64,000 bases of DNA. Source: a virus. Made by a program: the position numbers and the translations under genes. The stretch spans positions 1-64,000 of the IMG/VR virus record IMGVR_UViG_3300033990_000306; one strand, 5' to 3'. Under the pieces are notes generated by a model. It searched no databases. It was given only the letters and a program-made list of their open reading frames with translations, and had not been told where the DNA came from. This document shows, one piece after another, positions 5,500-62,219 of the stretch (positions are counted from its first letter, which is position 1; each line of letters begins with the position of its first letter).

Positions 5500-5564
5500 C
5501 ACTCCCATAAAAACTTAAATATAAAATTAACTTAAGGGAATTACTAGAAAAGGAGGAGATTTTG

Positions 5565-7106
5565 ATGAGTGTAACAAAGAAGTTGGTAAAGAATAGAAAG
5601 TATGATACGGTGAATGACGAAGGAAGACCTAGTTATAGTATTGACGACAAACATATGTTGGTTAATATGGCATTGCTTGGAACATTGGACTCTACTTTTT
5701 ATAAGAGCGAAGATGAAAACAAAACAATGCTTTTTGACACTATAAACAAGTGGACAGAAGAAGACGTAGATTTTCTCATTAAAACAGCTATTTATGCTAA
5801 GGAAGTTGGAGGAAAAAGAACAAGCCCCATTGCTCTGATGGTCAAAGCTAGTACTCTGGACTTTGACAAATTTAAGACTAACTATAGTAGAGTAATAAAA
5901 ACTCCTAAAGATTGGTCTCAATTTATGGACTTGGCAAGGTCAAAGAGTTTGGGGAGAGTTGGAATTGGGTCTGGAATAAAGAAGTTGATGATTAGTGATA
6001 TTGCTGGGTATAATGATTACTTAGCTCTCAAGTATAGTGGAGAGATAAGGGAAATGATAAGAATGGCTCGCCCTAAAGAGAGTATTAATCCTTCCGTCAT
6101 TCCTTATATAATGAGAAGGGAAACAGTTAATAAGAAGGGAGAGGTTAATCAGTACTTTAATAATCTTGAGCTTTATAAGAAGGGCAAAATAAGTTTTGCT
6201 GAGTTTTCTAAGGAGAGGGTTTATCCTTATGAGCTTGTTTCTAGTTTTGGTACTTCTCCAGAAATTTGGGAGTATTTAATGAACACCAGTCCTATATTTA
6301 ATTTTCTCAGGAATTTGAGGAATTATTTTGCGAATGTGGACGCTGACAAAGTTTTAGAGAGAATGGAGAAAGTGTTTACTAAAGAGGCAATAAAGCATTC
6401 AAAGATTTTCCCAGCACAACTTTATATAGCTTACAAGGAGAATGTAAAGGATTGGGACATAGAAAAACCACCATTGAAGTTTTATAGGTTTAAAGATATA
6501 ATGACTAACGCAATAAAGGCTTCACTTGAGAATATTGCTATACCATTCGAAGGTAGAGTTGCAGTTCTTGGAGACATAAGTGGTTCTATGACTTCTACTT
6601 TGACTTCTAGTCATTCAGACATAAATGCGGCTATGGTTGTAGGACTTGTTACAGCTAGTATTATGGAGAAGAATGACGTAATATTCTTGCCATTTGATTC
6701 TGGAATTAGAGTTGGGGGAATTAGTGCTATGGCAAATGCTACTGACTTTCTGAGTAGAGTTTCTACTGTGGAGAATATGGTTGGTGGAGGGACTAATTTG
6801 GCTGTAGGATTTGAGTACCTTACTACTTTCAATAACAAAGTAGATAACATAATAGGAATAACAGACAATGAAAGTTGGTTTGGGAATGATGTGGAGAATG
6901 CTATAAAAACCTACATTAAGAAAATTAATCCTAACGTGAAGATTTGGTTAATGACTATAGTTCCTAATGACACCCAAATGACTAAGAGTAGCAATCCTAA
7001 CATAACTTATTTGTATGGGTGGAATGATGATATATTTTCTCTTTCAAAGAGCAAGACAGTTGATGAGCAAATAAAAGAAATAGAGGCGATAAAATGGATA
7101 GTGTAA
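5565..7106 (+). CDS. rsr: Ro60/Rsr-like TROVE + VWA domain RNA-binding protein
   Basis: N-terminal NDEG...GTLDSTFY, IRMARPK, LRNLRN, FPAQLY; VWA MIDAS DISGSM, GGGT, ITDNESW; GGAGG SD. Confidence 0.9.
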   Translation: MSVTKKLVKNRKYDTVNDEGRPSYSIDDKHMLVNMALLGTLDSTFYKSEDENKTMLFDTINKWTEEDVDFLIKTAIYAKEVGGKRTSPIALMVKASTLDFDKFKTNYSRVIKTPKDWSQFMDLARSKSLGRVGIGSGIKKLMISDIAGYNDYLALKYSGEIREMIRMARPKESINPSVIPYIMRRETVNKKGEVNQYFNNLELYKKGKISFAEFSKERVYPYELVSSFGTSPEIWEYLMNTSPIFNFLRNLRNYFANVDADKVLERMEKVFTKEAIKHSKIFPAQLYIAYKENVKDWDIEKPPLKFYRFKDIMTNAIKASLENIAIPFEGRVAVLGDISGSMTSTLTSSHSDINAAMVVGLVTASIMEKNDVIFLPFDSGIRVGGISAMANATDFLSRVSTVENMVGGGTNLAVGFEYLTTFNNKVDNIIGITDNESWFGNDVENAIKTYIKKINPNVKIWLMTIVPNDTQMTKSSNPNITYLYGWNDDIFSLSKSKTVDEQIKEIEAIKWIV

Positions 7107-55308: not shown

Positions 55309-55464
55309 ATGTTATATTGTTCTAATTGTAGAGTAAAATTTCCTAGAGAGGAATTGCAGGAAATATATTGTTTTAAGCATAAGAGGAAAGAATTGTTTTG
55401 CGATATGTGTGCTATAGAAATAGAATTTAATGGAGGGGATGAACATAGTTTTGTGGGTGAATGA
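55309..55464 (+). CDS. small Zn-finger protein
   Basis: YCSNC...FCDMC; manual translation. Confidence 0.45.
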   Translation: MLYCSNCRVKFPREELQEIYCFKHKRKELFCDMCAIEIEFNGGDEHSFVGE

Positions 55465-56149
55465 CATTTCTCCTAGTACTCAGGGAGAAGGGAAGTATAT
55501 GGGTACGAGTATAGTTATACTGAGAATGATGTTATGTAACTTAGAGTGTAGTGCTAGTAAAGGAGGGTTTGATTGTGATACTTATTACACGTGGGATAAG
55601 AATAGGTTAGCCGAAGGAAGAAAGTTAACTGTAGAAGAAACTGTTAATGAGGTTAATAAGTATATGTCTCCAGAAAGAAACACTATAATGCTTACAGGGG
55701 GAGAACCTCTTATATGGCAGAAGAATGAAGAGTTTGTTGAAGTTTTGAAGAAACTTAAAGAGTTAGGTTGGAAAATACATTTAGAGACTAATGGTACTCA
55801 GAAGTTAGAAATACAAGAGTTAATGGACTTTATAGCTATTAGTCCAAAGCAAACTCAGTACAAGTCTTATTATAATAATGAAATAGTGCAGAGTTATTTT
55901 ACAGTACCACATATATGGAAATTTGTTATAAGGACTAGGGAAAATGTTACTGACGCAATAGAATTTCTACTTATTCACAAAGTTCCAACTTCTGATGAAA
56001 TTTTTCTTATGCCGGAAGGAGTTACTTCTGAGCAACTACTTTCCTCAATAAAGAAATTTATAAACCCTAACATAATACTCTTTCCAAGAAATAAATATAA
56101 TAACATATATATTTCTAACAGAAGGCAAATAACGGAGGGATTTAAATGA
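55430..56149 (+). CDS. queE: 7-carboxy-7-deazaguanine synthase (radical SAM)
   Basis: STQGEG..MG, CNLEC...CDT.Y.W, LTGGEPL, LETNGT, ISPK, KFVI, LMPEG. Confidence 0.9.
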   Translation: MEGMNIVLWVNDISPSTQGEGKYMGTSIVILRMMLCNLECSASKGGFDCDTYYTWDKNRLAEGRKLTVEETVNEVNKYMSPERNTIMLTGGEPLIWQKNEEFVEVLKKLKELGWKIHLETNGTQKLEIQELMDFIAISPKQTQYKSYYNNEIVQSYFTVPHIWKFVIRTRENVTDAIEFLLIHKVPTSDEIFLMPEGVTSEQLLSSIKKFINPNIILFPRNKYNNIYISNRRQITEGFK

Positions 56150-56370
56150 AGAGAAACAAAGTTAAGACAAAGGTGGATGGAGAGAAGCTTATATTGACAG
56201 GATTTTCAGAGAAGGAGTTAAATTATTTTAAGGAGAATAAAGTAGTTTTCTTCGAGCAAATGAATGATATTTTTGTGTTGTATATAAATGACAATACTAC
56301 ATTTGCTACTGACGATGAGACTTATAAGCCTAATGAAGACACGAAAGACCACTTAAATATGTATAGGTGA
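56146..56370 (+). CDS. hypothetical protein
   Basis: ORF in operon. Confidence 0.5.
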   Translation: MKRNKVKTKVDGEKLILTGFSEKELNYFKENKVVFFEQMNDIFVLYINDNTTFATDDETYKPNEDTKDHLNMYR

Positions 56371-56377
56371 AAATTAG

Positions 56378-56941
56378 TTGGGCGACAAAGAGGTAGAGGA
56401 AGCTATAAGGAGTTTGATGAAAGTAATGGAGGAAAATTATAATTGGAAGTTTACAGAAGAAGAGTATAGAGAAACTCCAGTAAGAGTTAAGGAAATGTAT
56501 AAAGAGTGGTATGGTAATAACACTTATGAGAAAATGACTGCATTTGACCCTATAAATAAATTTGACTCACTAATAAGTTTGTCAAATATATCATATGGAG
56601 CTATATGTAGTCATCACTTAATGCCTTTTACTGGTAAGGTTTCTATAGTATATTTGCCTAGTAATAAAATTCTTGGGGCTAGTAAGTTAGCCCGTTATGT
56701 TAATAAATTTGCTTATAGACCAACCACTCAGGAAATAATGACAGAGAGTATAGCAAAAGCTATAATGGAAGAAACTTCTGCTAGGGCAGTTATGGTTTAT
56801 AGTACTGGTACACATACTTGTATGACTATGAGAGGAGTTAAGAAGAATGAAGCTACGTTTAAAGTTTCTACAATATTAGGAGACTTTAAAGTATTTCCGA
56901 GTTTGAAAGAAGAAGCTTTTGAGTTGGCGGAGAAGGAATAA
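56378..56941 (+). CDS. folE: GTP cyclohydrolase I
   Basis: ETP.RV, CSHHLMPF.G, G.SKLAR, QE, HTCMTMRGV. Confidence 0.93.
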   Translation: MGDKEVEEAIRSLMKVMEENYNWKFTEEEYRETPVRVKEMYKEWYGNNTYEKMTAFDPINKFDSLISLSNISYGAICSHHLMPFTGKVSIVYLPSNKILGASKLARYVNKFAYRPTTQEIMTESIAKAIMEETSARAVMVYSTGTHTCMTMRGVKKNEATFKVSTILGDFKVFPSLKEEAFELAEKE

Positions 56942-57876
56942 TGATATACGTAATTACTTTACCGAGTATAGAAACTAGGTATACAGGACAATGGTATAAG
57001 TGGATGTGGAATTATGTTGATTCTACTAAAAGACAAGACATAAGAGTTATGGGAGACAATCTAGCTATTAAAATTCCACCTACAGAATTTTTAGATTTTC
57101 GTCAGTATTATTTTAAAGTTTATCCTTTTTTAATGGCTACTATAAAAGTAATTAAGAGTGGAGATACAGTATTTTTTATGGACGGAGAAACTGCTGGAGT
57201 AGAAGCTTTTGAGTACATAAGGAAAATGGAAAATATAAAAGTGGACATAAGAACATTTTGGCATTCAGGGACTTATGATAAGTATGACTTGACAGCCATA
57301 AGAGGAGTTCACGGAGAGAATTTTGAGAAAGGATGGTTTGATATAACTGACAAGATTTATGTTAGTAGTGATTTCCATAAGAGACTATTAGTGGAGTCTC
57401 GTGGGGTAGAGAAAGAGAAGATAATAGTGACGGGCAATCCTCTAGATTTGAATTTGTTTAGTGATGGTACTAAGACAATAAAGACTAACAATGTTATGTA
57501 TGCTGGGAGATTAGTACCTGAGAAAGGTTATGACATAGTAAAAGAATTAAGAAAAAAGAGAATTGATATTACAGTTAGCTTGGAAAATAAATGGGACAAG
57601 AAGAGATTTTATGAAGAGTTAGCGGCTAGTAAAGTATTGTTTTCTCCTTCGAAACAAGATATGTTTGCTACGGCTTGTATGGAAGCATTTGGGTCTAATG
57701 TTCCAGTATTAGTGCCTGACATAGAAAACTATAAAGAAATAGTTCCAGAAAGGTATAGGTATAAAAAGTTGGAAGATATTGACTGGAATAATTTAGAAAA
57801 ATTGTCTACTGGCAATGAAAGGAAATTAGTAGAGAAATTTCAGTATGAAAAAGTAATGGAGGAATGGTTTAAATGA
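56941..57876 (+). CDS. GT-B glycosyltransferase within deazaguanine cluster
   Basis: IETRYTGQW, WHSGTYD.YD, AGRLVPEKG, QD.F....EA. Confidence 0.8.
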   Translation: MIYVITLPSIETRYTGQWYKWMWNYVDSTKRQDIRVMGDNLAIKIPPTEFLDFRQYYFKVYPFLMATIKVIKSGDTVFFMDGETAGVEAFEYIRKMENIKVDIRTFWHSGTYDKYDLTAIRGVHGENFEKGWFDITDKIYVSSDFHKRLLVESRGVEKEKIIVTGNPLDLNLFSDGTKTIKTNNVMYAGRLVPEKGYDIVKELRKKRIDITVSLENKWDKKRFYEELAASKVLFSPSKQDMFATACMEAFGSNVPVLVPDIENYKEIVPERYRYKKLEDIDWNNLEKLSTGNERKLVEKFQYEKVMEEWFK

Positions 57877-58211
57877 TAACATATGTGTATTGTACATTTC
57901 AGAAAGAAGGATTTCACAAATGGAATGGAGCTACAGAAATTCCAGAGGTTAGTTATTTAGCTAACAAGCATAGACATATATTTCATTATAAGGTTGGGGT
58001 TTCAGTAGAGCATAATGATAGAGAAGTAGAGTTTATTATGTTAAAACACCAATTAGAAACTTTCGTTGATAAATGGAATAAGGAAGATTATGGAAGTTGT
58101 GAAACTCAGGCTTCTAGAATTTATGGGTATTTAGTTTACAATTATAGTAATAGAAATTATTTTGTAGAAGTTTCAGAAGACGGAGAGAATGGAAGTATAA
58201 TGTTAAGTTAA
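57873..58211 (+). CDS. queD: 6-carboxytetrahydropterin synthase, viral QueD-like
   Basis: EGFH.W, L...HRH.F, DREVEF, SCE, VSEDGENG; context. Confidence 0.75.
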   Translation: MITYVYCTFQKEGFHKWNGATEIPEVSYLANKHRHIFHYKVGVSVEHNDREVEFIMLKHQLETFVDKWNKEDYGSCETQASRIYGYLVYNYSNRNYFVEVSEDGENGSIMLS

Positions 58212-58257
58212 TGTGAATACGAAGATATATTTATATAGCATTTAGTTATATGAAACT

Positions 58258-59820
58258 ATGACAGAAGTATATTTTAGCGGAATAGAAGGTTCATTAGACG
58301 AATTAAAAGTTATGTTCGAGAATGGTTATAAAATTAATAACCTAATGACTTCATTCGCTTCTTTTAGAAGGATTCCCAAATTCATTGAGGAATTAAAAGA
58401 AATGAAAGACAAATATAAGTTTAAGTTAATTGTTGATAGTGGGGCTCACGCATTTCTTTTTGCTCTTAATGTTAAGAATAAAAAAATTACTAAGGGTTGG
58501 CACGATGAGGCTCAAATAGTGAAAGAGTTTGAGGGGAGAGAGGAAGAATACTTTGAGGAGTATTTTAATTGGTTAGACACTCACAGAGATTATTATGACT
58601 ATGCTGTAGAGTTAGACATAGCTACAGTAGTTGGAGAAGAGAAAGTGAGTGAATGGAGAAAGAAATTGGCGGAGTCTAAACTTCCTATTATTTATGTCTT
58701 ACACGCAAATGCGGGGGATACTTTTAAGACTGTTGAGTATTTTAAAGAGTTGGGAGCTACTTATATAGGTATAGGAGCATTGCCAGAAGAGTTTAATAAA
58801 ATGTTAATGTTTGCGAGAGAAATAAGAAAGAATGGAATGAGTGTTCATATTTTTGCTTTTACTCCTAAAGAGTTGTTTAAGTATAAGGACATATTGAGTA
58901 GCGTGGACTCTACTTCTTGGTTGAGTGGAAGTAAATTAGCTAAAGCTGTAGAATTAAAAGGTAAGAGTTTAGTAGACGTTAATTTGAAAGAAGACAAGTT
59001 AAAGAAAATGTCAATACTCAGAGACAAGTTTTTTGATATGTTTGGGAGAAAGAAGGTAGAAGAGAAAACAAAAGGTAATCAGTATTGGTATTTTAATTTC
59101 TGGAATTTGTCTCAATACCAGAAATGGGCAGACAAGAATAATGGAGTTAAAGGTTATACTAAACAGTTGCAGGAAATAGAAGAAGGAGTTTTACCAGCAC
59201 CTAGTTGGATGAATAATTTTGACAAGAATGGAATGCCTAAAACAAAATATTTAGCTAGTAGGTTTAATAATTACAGAAGTGGGGCGTTTGCTAAAGGAAT
59301 ACAAAGTATGGCTATGTTTTGTGATATGTGTCCAGTTGGAGGACAGAGTGCAACAGGAGAACCTTTATGTCCTAAGTATGGTGCAGGAGAGGTCTGTTTC
59401 TTCTTACCGTACTGGAAAAAGTTGGGAATGAATACTAGGAATAAGCAACAGGTAGTAAGGACTCTAGAAGACTTGGTAGCAGAAGCTATAGTGAGGTGGC
59501 AATTCGCTAGGTTTCAAGAACAGTTGACTGGTGTTATAGACAAGAACGTAACTGCCCTTTATAAAGAGTTAGTGAGTTCTTTGGAGTTATATAATAGAGT
59601 AGCCTTTGGAGTACAGAATGTTAATACTCTTAATATGCTTAATATAGGAGACAATAAAGTTCAGGTGAGTATGAATTTTGATGATGCTCTTGAAAAGGTG
59701 AGAGAAGTTTATGGAGAGAAACTCTCTAAGAAGATAGAAAAGAAAATAACAGAAGCATACGAAAATAAGGGAGAGAATGAAGAAATTGACTTCACAGAGA
59801 ATAAACACCCACAAGAATAA
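58258..59820 (+). CDS. dpdA: DpdA-like DNA transglycosylase (TGT fold) with Cys-rich/helical C-terminal extension
   Basis: IVDSGA..F, ELD, PIIYVLH, YIGIG, VHIFA, SVDSTSW; C-terminal CDMC...CPKY...C. Confidence 0.75.
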   Translation: MTEVYFSGIEGSLDELKVMFENGYKINNLMTSFASFRRIPKFIEELKEMKDKYKFKLIVDSGAHAFLFALNVKNKKITKGWHDEAQIVKEFEGREEEYFEEYFNWLDTHRDYYDYAVELDIATVVGEEKVSEWRKKLAESKLPIIYVLHANAGDTFKTVEYFKELGATYIGIGALPEEFNKMLMFAREIRKNGMSVHIFAFTPKELFKYKDILSSVDSTSWLSGSKLAKAVELKGKSLVDVNLKEDKLKKMSILRDKFFDMFGRKKVEEKTKGNQYWYFNFWNLSQYQKWADKNNGVKGYTKQLQEIEEGVLPAPSWMNNFDKNGMPKTKYLASRFNNYRSGAFAKGIQSMAMFCDMCPVGGQSATGEPLCPKYGAGEVCFFLPYWKKLGMNTRNKQQVVRTLEDLVAEAIVRWQFARFQEQLTGVIDKNVTALYKELVSSLELYNRVAFGVQNVNTLNMLNIGDNKVQVSMNFDDALEKVREVYGEKLSKKIEKKITEAYENKGENEEIDFTENKHPQE

Positions 59821-59862
59821 GAATAAGTCGTCTAGCGATTTATAAATTTGAGGTGAATAATA

Positions 59863-61278
59863 ATGGCTGAAAGAATAGACTATACAAATATATTTAAGTC
59901 CCCAACTTTGTTTGCTATGAAGGTTTTAAAGGTAATGCCGTTGAGACACCAAGCACAAATATTAGAAGACGAAAGTTCAAGAATATTAATAGTAAGTGGA
60001 AGACAGGCTGGCAAGTCTACTCTCTTAGCAATTAAAGCTTTATGGACAGCTTTTGTTAAACCTTCACAGGACATACTAATAGTAGCCCCAACACTAAGAC
60101 AGAGCCGAGTAGTATACCAACGAATAACAGACTTTATACTTTCCTCAAAAGAAGTTAAAGCTCACATTTTAAAAAGTAATATGGAAGAAACTAGATTTGA
60201 CAATGGGAGTTATATTCGTTGCTTAACAGCTTCAAAGACTGGAGAAACTATAAGAGGGTTTAGTGCTACTATGTTAATATTTGACGAAGCTGGGAGTATA
60301 GAGAATGATGAAGTGTTTTCAGCAGTAGAGCCTTCTTTGGCGGTTAAAGGAGAACAATTAATACTAAGCGGTACACCAAGAGGAAAGAGGGGTTACTTTT
60401 ATAATAACTATGCAACCAATGACAAAACAAAGCGTTGGCAAATATATAAGTTTACTTCGAGAGTTAACCCAATAATAACAGAAGACTACTTAAAAGAGGA
60501 AAGGGCTAATATGACTGAGAATAGGTACTTAGAGGAGTATGAAGCAGAGTTTATTGACGAAATAGGGCTGTTTTATCCTCAAGAGTTAGTAGCCCAATGT
60601 TCAGAAGACTATACTTATACATTAGAGAGAGAGGAAGGTTATAAGTATTATTTGGGTGCAGACATAAGTAGAGCAGGTAGTGATGAGACTAGTATAGTTA
60701 TTATTGCTGTACCTGACGACCCAATTAGAAAGATTAGAGTAGTTTGGGCGGAAGGATTAAAGTATAGTGATATAACAGTATCCTCCAGAGAAATAATAAG
60801 GAAGGCTTTAGCTATAGGAGTAGAACAAGTGTTAGTTGATGCTATAGGAATAGGAGGGGGAGTATATGATATTATTCAGAAAGAGTTGGGGAGTAGTAAG
60901 GTTACTGCCGTTACTCTTGAAGGAGAAAGAAGGGAGACTGCCTATACTAATTTAAAGATAATGCTGGAGAAGAGAAGGTTAATACTTAATGAGAATGACA
61001 CTAAAATGTATCACCAGTTTAGTAGTTACTCTTTAAAAGAAAAAGTAGGAGGAGGAATAAGAATAGTAAAGAGTGAGGAAATACACGATGATATAGTTGA
61101 CGGCTTAGTGTTGGCTTTGTATGGAGTAGAGAGTATTACTAAGTTTACAGTTTTTGAAGGAGTTAATTTAGACAATGATTTCTTTAAGAATTGGGCAGAA
61201 CAGAGTGCAATGCAGTCAGTTATAAAGTCTCCACTTAATTCGCCTTTCTATTATCCGTTAGACTATTTGGAGAAGTAA
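59863..61278 (+). CDS. terL: terminase large subunit
   Basis: GRQAGKS, APTLRQS, IRG, FDEA, SGTPRG..G.FY, EYEAEF, GADI, HDDIVD. Confidence 0.93.
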   Translation: MAERIDYTNIFKSPTLFAMKVLKVMPLRHQAQILEDESSRILIVSGRQAGKSTLLAIKALWTAFVKPSQDILIVAPTLRQSRVVYQRITDFILSSKEVKAHILKSNMEETRFDNGSYIRCLTASKTGETIRGFSATMLIFDEAGSIENDEVFSAVEPSLAVKGEQLILSGTPRGKRGYFYNNYATNDKTKRWQIYKFTSRVNPIITEDYLKEERANMTENRYLEEYEAEFIDEIGLFYPQELVAQCSEDYTYTLEREEGYKYYLGADISRAGSDETSIVIIAVPDDPIRKIRVVWAEGLKYSDITVSSREIIRKALAIGVEQVLVDAIGIGGGVYDIIQKELGSSKVTAVTLEGERRETAYTNLKIMLEKRRLILNENDTKMYHQFSSYSLKEKVGGGIRIVKSEEIHDDIVDGLVLALYGVESITKFTVFEGVNLDNDFFKNWAEQSAMQSVIKSPLNSPFYYPLDYLEK

Positions 61279-61325: not shown

Positions 61326-61553
61326 ATGGAAGAGAGTAGTAAATTAGAGAATTATAAGGTTGTAAAGAGAATAGAGAAGATAGAAGAGTTGTCTGGAGTT
61401 TATCTCAAAATGGCTCTCAATAAACATAAGACTGTTGGGGCTTTAAAGTTCAGAGAACAGACTGAGAGAGAGGCTTTGGAGGAAATAATAAGAGAGGTAA
61501 GAGTAATAGAGGACATTCTTGTGAATGATTTGGGCGAGAAGGTGATAGAATGA
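61326..61553 (+). CDS. hypothetical protein
   Basis: ORF with TATA and SD. Confidence 0.55.
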   Translation: MEESSKLENYKVVKRIEKIEELSGVYLKMALNKHKTVGALKFREQTEREALEEIIREVRVIEDILVNDLGEKVIE

Positions 61554-61747
61554 GTAGGGAGAAAAGAGTAAGACTAATTGAGAAAACGTTTAAAGACAGA
61601 AGTAAAATAGTGTGGATGACAGTAGAGACTAATGAGAGGCTTAAGAAAATAAAGAAGGAATTACGTTTAGCCGCAATGGAGGATGTCCTTATTTATTTGT
61701 TAACATTGCAGGACGAGGTTAAGAAAGCTCAGGAAGAAAGAAAGTAA
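61550..61747 (+). CDS. ribbon-helix-helix-like DNA-binding protein
   Basis: IVWMTVET.ERLK.IK...EDVL.YLL. Confidence 0.5.
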   Translation: MSREKRVRLIEKTFKDRSKIVWMTVETNERLKKIKKELRLAAMEDVLIYLLTLQDEVKKAQEERK

Positions 61748-61960
61748 ATGTGGTATAACTTGTATTTGAATGATGGTACTCAGGTGAGGATTAATTTATT
61801 TTCGAGAAGAGACGGGAAATTCAGAGGAGTTGGAGTGGACGGAAAAGACTTAGTTATAAGTGAGAGTGACGTTCAGAATATAAAGTTGGCAGAAGGTAAT
61901 AATGACTATTATGGTTACTCAACAACATTCGGAGGTGTAGAGGGAATTGGATATGGATAA
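61748..61960 (+). CDS. hypothetical protein
   Basis: ORF in operon. Confidence 0.5.
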   Translation: MWYNLYLNDGTQVRINLFSRRDGKFRGVGVDGKDLVISESDVQNIKLAEGNNDYYGYSTTFGGVEGIGYG

Positions 61961-62219
61961 GTATAGAGAGAAGGAAGAGTGGACTACAATAGGCGGGTAT
62001 ATATTAGGAGAGAAAATGCCAGTACTAATTTCTACTGGGGATATTGCGGTTACTATTACATTGCCGAAGTTGGGGTTAAGTGGAAGAGGAATTAGTTATA
62101 GAGAAGCATACTGGAGACTGTTGTATGAGTTTGAGAGGGCTTTAAAAGAGCCTAAAGAGTTTGATGATATTGAATGGAAGAGGTTGAGGGTTATTAATAG
62201 GTTAAAGGAGGAAAAATAA
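61947..62219 (+). CDS. HicB-N-like small protein
   Basis: LP.LGL.G.G.SY.EA...L. Confidence 0.45.
   Translation: MDMDKYREKEEWTTIGGYILGEKMPVLISTGDIAVTITLPKLGLSGRGISYREAYWRLLYEFERALKEPKEFDDIEWKRLRVINRLKEEK

Follow-up and report, generated by a model that had tools for sequence, protein, structure and literature searches.

What is a base-exchange enzyme with a long C-terminal extension doing directly upstream of terL, in the slot of a small terminase (TerS)? The question is raised by IMG/VR virus record IMGVR_UViG_3300033990_000306, an 88.5-kb record (estimated to be ~79% complete) whose first 64 kb, hereafter the window, were analyzed. Positions 58258-61278 hold two open reading frames (ORFs), which encode a 520-amino-acid (aa) DpdA-type protein and the 471-aa terminase large subunit TerL (Table 1). 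The original prediction read the first as a fusion of DpdA with TerS that links base exchange, or reading of the modification, to genome packaging. Its placement of the gene directly upstream of terL was accurate: the two genes are co-oriented, and 42 nucleotides (nt) separate the DpdA stop codon (59818-59820) from the terL ATG (59863). The 520-aa protein combines a transglycosylase barrel with a C-terminal Cys4 and helical hairpin domain, here named CHH, and the best reading, to which we assign a probability of roughly 0.55, is that of a long-form DpdA (DpdA-long) with a built-in accessory module.

The AlphaFold2 (AF2) model of the 520-aa protein, built on 75 homologues, has a predicted local distance difference test (pLDDT) score of 85 overall and >90 over residues 1-310, which form a TIM barrel of the tRNA-guanine transglycosylase (TGT)/DpdA type. 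The best PDB matches of the model by Foldseek are arcTGT (1iq8) and bacterial TGTs (E about 2e-5), and structure matches in BFVD include phage models labelled 'queuine tRNA-ribosyltransferase', which is also the label of phrog_887, matching residues 2-330 at 5e-13. In addition, the family profile matches the DpdA gene of phage 9g, whose product is experimentally active (E 2.7e-24, positions 38-280), in keeping with the TGT-like barrel originally described for the first ~300 aa. Barrel motifs D60-S61-G62, H149, H197, and D217-S218-x-x-W221 align with phage 9g DpdA, in which H196 corresponds to H197; all of them are invariant or near-invariant across the 75 sequences, and probable roles for the DSG Asp, the conserved His, and the DS(S/T)SW Asp were assigned after the TGT literature. 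The window protein therefore shares with 9g DpdA (DpdA1 in the sense of PMC6884629 and PMC10516641) a TIM-barrel transglycosylase with DSGA, VHGF, and DS(S/T)SW motifs, encoded beside FolE/QueE/QueD-type genes; however, the 9g protein comprises 317 aa and has no C-terminal domain, whereas the window protein adds about 210 aa. The genome context of a DpdA is likewise present, because QueE-like, FolE, and DpdL-motif QueD-like genes lie directly upstream.

Membership of DpdA3 or DpdA2 was considered but is not supported, as the family profile matches nothing in the phiST and CP220 (DpdA3) or nt-1 (DpdA2) genomes; it also matches nothing in the HGTV-1 genome, and the 520-aa protein has no match to Pfam DUF6610 (DpdA4). 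No Pfam or NCBIfam family matched the 520-aa protein, no Pfam family matched any of the 75 homologues, and sequence and profile searches of the PDB returned no match. Judged by its motifs and profile matches, the gene appears to encode an intact phage DpdA of the 9g type, with a barrel that looks catalytically competent. That the barrel is dead and the protein serves only as a DNA-recognition or packaging factor is very improbable, with D60-S-G, H149, H197, and D217-S-x-x-W221 all present and aligned with the active 9g DpdA, and with the full precursor pathway directly upstream.

Beyond the barrel, a linker and CHH together span ~210 aa, with ~170 aa for CHH alone. The linker, modeled at low confidence, carries a conserved RFNNYRSG motif, and is followed by the cysteine motif of the original prediction, present as C355-D-M-C358 ... 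C371-P-K-Y ... C380; all four Cys residues are invariant in the 75 homologues and may bind a metal, either Zn or Fe-S. The long helical region described originally resolves into helices 396-424 and 429-450 (pLDDT about 90), which pack as a two-helix hairpin with near-invariant R413, E421, and G425, and two later helices (474-504) that lead into an acidic tail. Both the Cys4 cluster and the hairpin are kept in all 75 long-form homologues, the hairpin is the CHH core common to phrog_6902 proteins, and a tail of the E-x-[IV]-D kind is seen whether CHH is fused or stands alone. It had been recognized from the outset that a match of the C-terminus to the ordinary Zn-binding subdomain of TGTs only would speak against a fusion. 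In TGTs and bacterial DpdA, the zinc site is CxCxxC-x22-H inside the barrel (PMC10164549); unlike these, the 520-aa protein lacks this motif, and its sole conserved Cys residues, at positions 355-380, lie outside the barrel, such that CHH is a separate conserved domain. At E <= 1e-3, a profile search retrieved 3992 cluster representatives; of the 150 best-scoring ones, the majority measure 450-560 aa and have CxxC-x5-CP-x7/8-C. When modeled on its own, CHH gave a weaker AF2 model (pLDDT 63) with no significant match in BFVD outside the family, and CHH profile searches of the PDB found no match.

Inteins were observed at two sites in homologues, between R340 and S341 of the RFNNYR/SG motif (P0013, P0014, P0018) and directly before the C380 equivalent (P0002 and P0008, as well as loci L074, L075, and L081). 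Both types carry LAGLIDADG endonuclease domains, and no mention of inteins in DpdA was found in the DpdA literature covered. The linker and Cys motifs are probably under functional constraint, because two independent intein sites (S341, C380) fall there.

The literature presents DpdA enzymes as barrels of a single domain, partnered in bacteria by a ParB-like DpdB. The DpdA/DpdB pair of Salmonella Montevideo (PMC10164549) resembles the present case in that a TGT-like barrel swaps G in DNA and needs a second component, but the long forms are not accompanied by a ParB-like gene. This is apparent from 151 loci gathered from viral, genome, and metagenome collections and annotated with purpose-built hidden Markov models (HMMs), with lineages counted at the level of 50%-identity clusters. 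The short phage DpdAs of these related loci resemble the bacterial pair, in that a ParB_N (DpdB-like) gene comes next; this was seen in 8 clusters with short DpdA, and after no long or split form.

Long and split forms instead have CHH, either fused to the barrel or encoded by the next gene. Fused barrel and CHH occur in isolates as Bacillus phage BCD7 gp021, which at 757 aa exceeds the window protein in length, and as the 500-aa gp36 of Streptomyces phage BRock, both of PHROG 887, which covers CHH in other members; BCD7 was matched by our A3 profile at 9.3e-76 and 1.6e-28, and its CHH region also by tblastn. Unlike the window gene, both lie away from terL: BCD7 gp021 sits in a FolE/QueC/QueD/QueE cluster 60 kb from terL, and small ORFs of unknown function precede terL. 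Stand-alone CHH proteins of 231-253 aa, which show an extra N-terminal Cys-rich segment and a basic C-terminus, are encoded by genes that overlap the end of a short DpdA barrel gene (311-323 aa) in all six viral loci. No TerL was found within 5 kb of split DpdA/CHH loci, and large ORFs downstream of them, considered as TerL, proved not to be. In the split-form phage of locus L189 (the record of L184), a QueD-like ORF (phrog_2389, 9e-6) was seen directly 5′ of terL, a further deazaguanine gene in this place. Production of a free CHH protein from an internal start in the fused gene was also considered but is not supported, in that no Shine-Dalgarno (SD) or TATA element precedes in-frame Met codons, either here or in relatives.

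The distance to terL varies among the long forms themselves. Three of nine long-form lineages adjoin terL, a count that, like all our adjacency counts, is a lower bound as the TerL HMM covers one TerL clade only; the other six have no terL within 3 kb, with an RNA ligase or PhoH gene downstream instead, and a terL that lies, where locatable, 45-60 kb away. Some of the phages with a distant terL have a Mre11/SbcD-like exonuclease gene 5′ of it, and no recognizable TerS in that slot. The synteny check thus gave a divided answer for the original prediction, with DpdA-long at terL in 6/6 loci of the window's own clade, and away from terL in 6/9 long-form lineages.

An accessory role for CHH is the best supported, because the domain accompanies the barrel at any distance from terL, either fused to it or encoded immediately after it, and excludes the ParB-like partner. 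Judged from this distribution, the primary association of CHH is with the transglycosylase, not with the terminase. From the observed fold, motifs, domain distribution, and synteny, we infer the following scheme: (i) DpdA-long would replace guanine of the viral DNA by a 7-deazaguanine base supplied by the upstream FolE, QueE, and QueD-like genes; (ii) CHH, with its Cys4 metal knuckle, its two-helix hairpin with conserved R, E, and G, and its acidic tail, would be a dedicated accessory module of the transglycosylase, acting in DNA handling and/or self-association; and (iii) CHH may stand in for the ParB-like DpdB that is encoded beside short DpdAs.

Several points weigh against this scheme, beginning with the fact that the function given to CHH is read from its distribution only, and most of them favor a dual function in which CHH of the archaeal-virus clade is the small terminase, its hairpin forming a ring and its tail binding TerL. 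On this view, DpdA-long itself would serve as TerS, and the start of packaging would be physically tied to base exchange or to recognition of the modification. In the window's clade (56-82% identity), the gene order is PolB, Cas4, ERCC4, QueE, FolE, (GT), (DpdL), DpdA-long, TerL, and the DpdA-long stop codon abuts or overlaps the terL start (-31 to +28 nt) in all six loci with room for both; DpdA-long overlaps terL likewise in the bacterial-phage locus L003. In 8 of ~17 lineages with a short DpdA, by comparison, terL lies no more than 3 kb away, always with at least one ORF between; these ORFs are often ParB_N (DpdB-like) genes, and in four of the seven tested the ORF next to terL is a recognizable TerS (phrog_4102 or phrog_309, E 1e-7 to 1e-34). 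A canonical TerS gene was thus seen between the two only where CHH is missing. Cluster B mycobacteriophages show the same order of DpdB-like, DpdA, QueC/D/E, TerS, and TerL genes (PMC6392294). Judged from gene order, the succession from a deazaguanine module to terL is an old and recurrent synteny.

CHH itself also reaches the TerS slot, as the C-terminus of 447-472-aa proteins of the actinophages Gordonia GTE7 and GourdThymes, Tsukamurella TIN2, and Rhodococcus Reynauld, whose genes directly precede or overlap terL and form phrog_6902, labelled 'terminase small subunit'. The homology (hhalign probability 97.6%, E 2.7e-12; HMM 8.5e-20) extends over the C-terminal Cys4 and hairpin of members such as GTE7 gp1, TIN2 gp1, and GourdThymes gp9, and is confined to CHH. 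A DpdA barrel is absent from GTE7, the only genome searched, and the N-terminal ~290 aa of these proteins show no detectable similarity to such a barrel; a degenerate barrel was considered there but is not supported (hhalign probability 0.2%), the only hint coming from a Gordonia phage Jumbo model, to which Foldseek aligned at length but with poor superposition. However, the TerS label of GTE7 was assigned by gene position only (PMC4524720), and phrog_6902 provides the sole family-level homology of CHH to TerS-labelled proteins.

Direct searches for TerS bear on the same alternative. No TerS was recognized anywhere in the virus, either among the small ORFs flanking terL, which were scanned with Pfam and PHROGs, or with HMMs built from the TerS-like ORFs of related loci, and the statement of the original prediction that no separate TerS is recognizable therefore holds. 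As an absence of evidence it is weak support for a fusion, because TerS is notoriously hard to recognize, and often unrecognizable in archaeal viruses. Four small ORFs directly 3′ of terL (61326-62219; 75, 65, 70, and 90 aa) recur in the related viruses, and the 65-aa ORF (61550-61747) reads like a ribbon-helix-helix DNA binder; these ORFs are the best remaining candidates for an unrecognized TerS.

The 520-aa protein matches no TerS family of Pfam or PHROGs, CHH compared with the TerS proteins of related loci gives hhalign probabilities of 0.3% or less, and no homology of CHH was detected to recognized TerS families, solved TerS structures, or ParB. The structure search of the C-terminal region, one of the checks suggested with the original prediction, returned generic alpha-hairpins only (pdb_via_wide, Z <= 8.9). 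Like a canonical TerS (PHROG 309/4102, helix-turn-helix type), the protein occupies the slot 5′ of terL, and its hairpin and flexible C-terminal tail resemble, in outline, the oligomerization core and TerL-binding tail of TerS; unlike one, it shows no sequence or fold match, measures 520 aa rather than about 100-250, and has an enzyme barrel in place of the N-terminal helix-turn-helix. The top feature match in the ESM Atlas, T5_Terminase_small at 0.82, is within the noise range. Taken with the many phages in which CHH accompanies DpdA far from terL, or is split off beside the barrel, and with the lack of homology to any validated TerS, these results make the dual function doubtful, and a functional small terminase is similarly a minority expectation for CHH in the archaeal-virus clade and, independently, in L003 and GTE7-like actinophages. 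Of the fusion originally proposed, the positional argument is real and recurrent, but the TerS half stays conjectural, insofar as CHH has no detectable homology to a recognized TerS and follows the barrel.

As originally described, the DpdA gene appears to have a leaderless TATA promoter, with the TATA-box-like TTTATATA 28 nt before the ATG and no SD. An octamer of the same kind, always 24-30 nt from the start codon, precedes 12 of 126 ORFs (9.5%), compared to 1.2% of random positions, and 8 of these 12 ORFs have no SD, which suggests that the set represents leaderless starts of transcription units. With its own TATA element and no SD, DpdA-long would therefore start a unit separate from the precursor genes and running into terL, which is preceded by an SD-like element. 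We thus envisage the DpdA-long gene as probably opening a leaderless unit that continues into terL; the arrangement of a DpdA gene with its own leaderless promoter, followed by an SD-led terL, would also suit a TerS.

The short C-terminal motifs raise one further explanation, in which CHH is neither TerS nor a catalytic accessory but a tether that binds another machine (for example the clamp of the replisome, the portal, or the inside of the capsid) and so brings DpdA to DNA. Such a tether would suit the disordered linker and the short acidic/hydrophobic tail behind it, E-x-[IV]-D, which is conserved whether CHH is fused or separate. It would also suit the GGILSK[IL]FG peptide that bacterial CHH members (alignment A4, P0164-P0176) keep with strong conservation in the disordered linker that follows their hairpin, and that resembles a short docking motif. 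Both sequences look like putative docking motifs, but they were read by eye only, no partner was identified, and the GGILSKLFG peptide is missing in the archaeal clade; a tether is distinctly unlikely. An accessory module of the transglycosylase remains the preferred reading of CHH.

The surroundings of the gene inform the nature of the virus and of the base. The window has a G+C content of ~34%, with nearly all genes on the plus strand, and probably belongs to an archaeal tailed virus because it encodes PolB, Cas4-like and ERCC4 nucleases, and the large subunit of an archaeo-eukaryotic primase. Positions 5562-7106 encode a 514-aa protein in which TROVE and Ro60 vWA domains were recognized (1e-10 each), an unusual find for an archaeal virus. 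The 112-aa QueD-like protein directly upstream of DpdA-long carries the motif of DpdL (7-carboxy-7-deazaguanine (CDG) decarboxylase) as defined in PMC10516641, reading LANKHRHIF. The annotated stretch of the precursor cluster includes no QueC gene, and a second QueD-like ORF lies at genome positions 76307-76777, outside the window. With FolE, QueE, and a DpdL-motif protein, and no QueC, 7-deazaguanine (dDG) or a derivative is therefore the predicted base, not preQ0.

The GT4 glycosyltransferase gene next to DpdA is kept directly 5′ of it far beyond the clade, with 52 matches in the fetched loci, mostly from lineages with DpdA near terL (L003, L004, L007-L010, L019, L043, and others); it may indicate a sugar-decorated base or some other shared function. 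Related loci also carry a YhhQ/Vut_1 transporter gene: in gut-phage relatives, a putative queuosine-precursor transporter gene lies between short DpdA and TerS, identified as Vut_1 by Pfam in L034 and forming a Vut_1/YhhQ group of L034 and L048, while L049, L045, and L126 have a 154-155-aa membrane ORF that appears QueT-like, by eye only, in the L049 group.

Table 1. Features of the DpdA-long/terL locus and its upstream genes (window coordinates).
Feature	Position	Strand	Evidence or remark
Upstream 7-deazaguanine module	55430..58211	+	QueE-like, FolE, GT4, QueD-like
QueE-like radical SAM gene	55430-56149	+	
FolE gene	56378-56941	+	
GT4 glycosyltransferase gene	56941-57876	+	
QueD-like protein, 112 aa, DpdL motif L-x3-H-R-H-x-F	57873-58211	+	Motif seen in translation
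TATA-box-like TTTATATA, 28 nt 5′ of DpdA ATG, without SD	58230..58237	+	
Long-form DpdA gene, 520 aa: putative DNA guanine transglycosylase barrel and CHH domain	58258..59820	+	
TGT/DpdA-type TIM barrel, residues 1-310	58258..59187	+	AF2, Foldseek, 9g DpdA profile match
Conserved R335-F-N-N-Y-R-S-G342 motif in low-confidence linker	59260..59283	+	
Four-cysteine cluster C355-x2-C358-x12-C371-P-x7-C380, putative metal site (Zn or Fe-S)	59320..59397	+	
Two-helix hairpin, residues 396-424 and 429-450	59443..59607	+	pLDDT about 90
Terminal helices 474-504 and acidic tail ending ...NEEIDF...	59677..59817	+	
TATA-like TTTATAAA in 42-nt spacer 5′ of terL	59839-59846	+	
SD-like GAGGTGA in spacer 5′ of terL	59850-59856	+	
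terL, terminase large subunit, 471 aa	59863..61278	+	Pfam Terminase_6N 1.2e-14; phrog_2 1.2e-49

The long forms described here represent a large, unannotated class of DpdAs in which CHH is carried or encoded next door, never together with a ParB-like partner. CHH is therefore a concrete candidate for the factor that lets phage DpdAs dispense with DpdB, and may bear on the very high replacement levels in some phages. The 'terminase small subunit' labels of PHROG 6902/16015 should be treated with caution, as they rest on gene position. Several groups of viruses that are unrelated have CHH in the TerS slot, which makes a physical link between hypermodification and packaging a testable question. 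If CHH were to act as TerS, the transglycosylase itself would be the packaging-initiation subunit, and the insertion or sensing of 7-deazaguanine would be mechanically coupled to the packaging of the viral genome.

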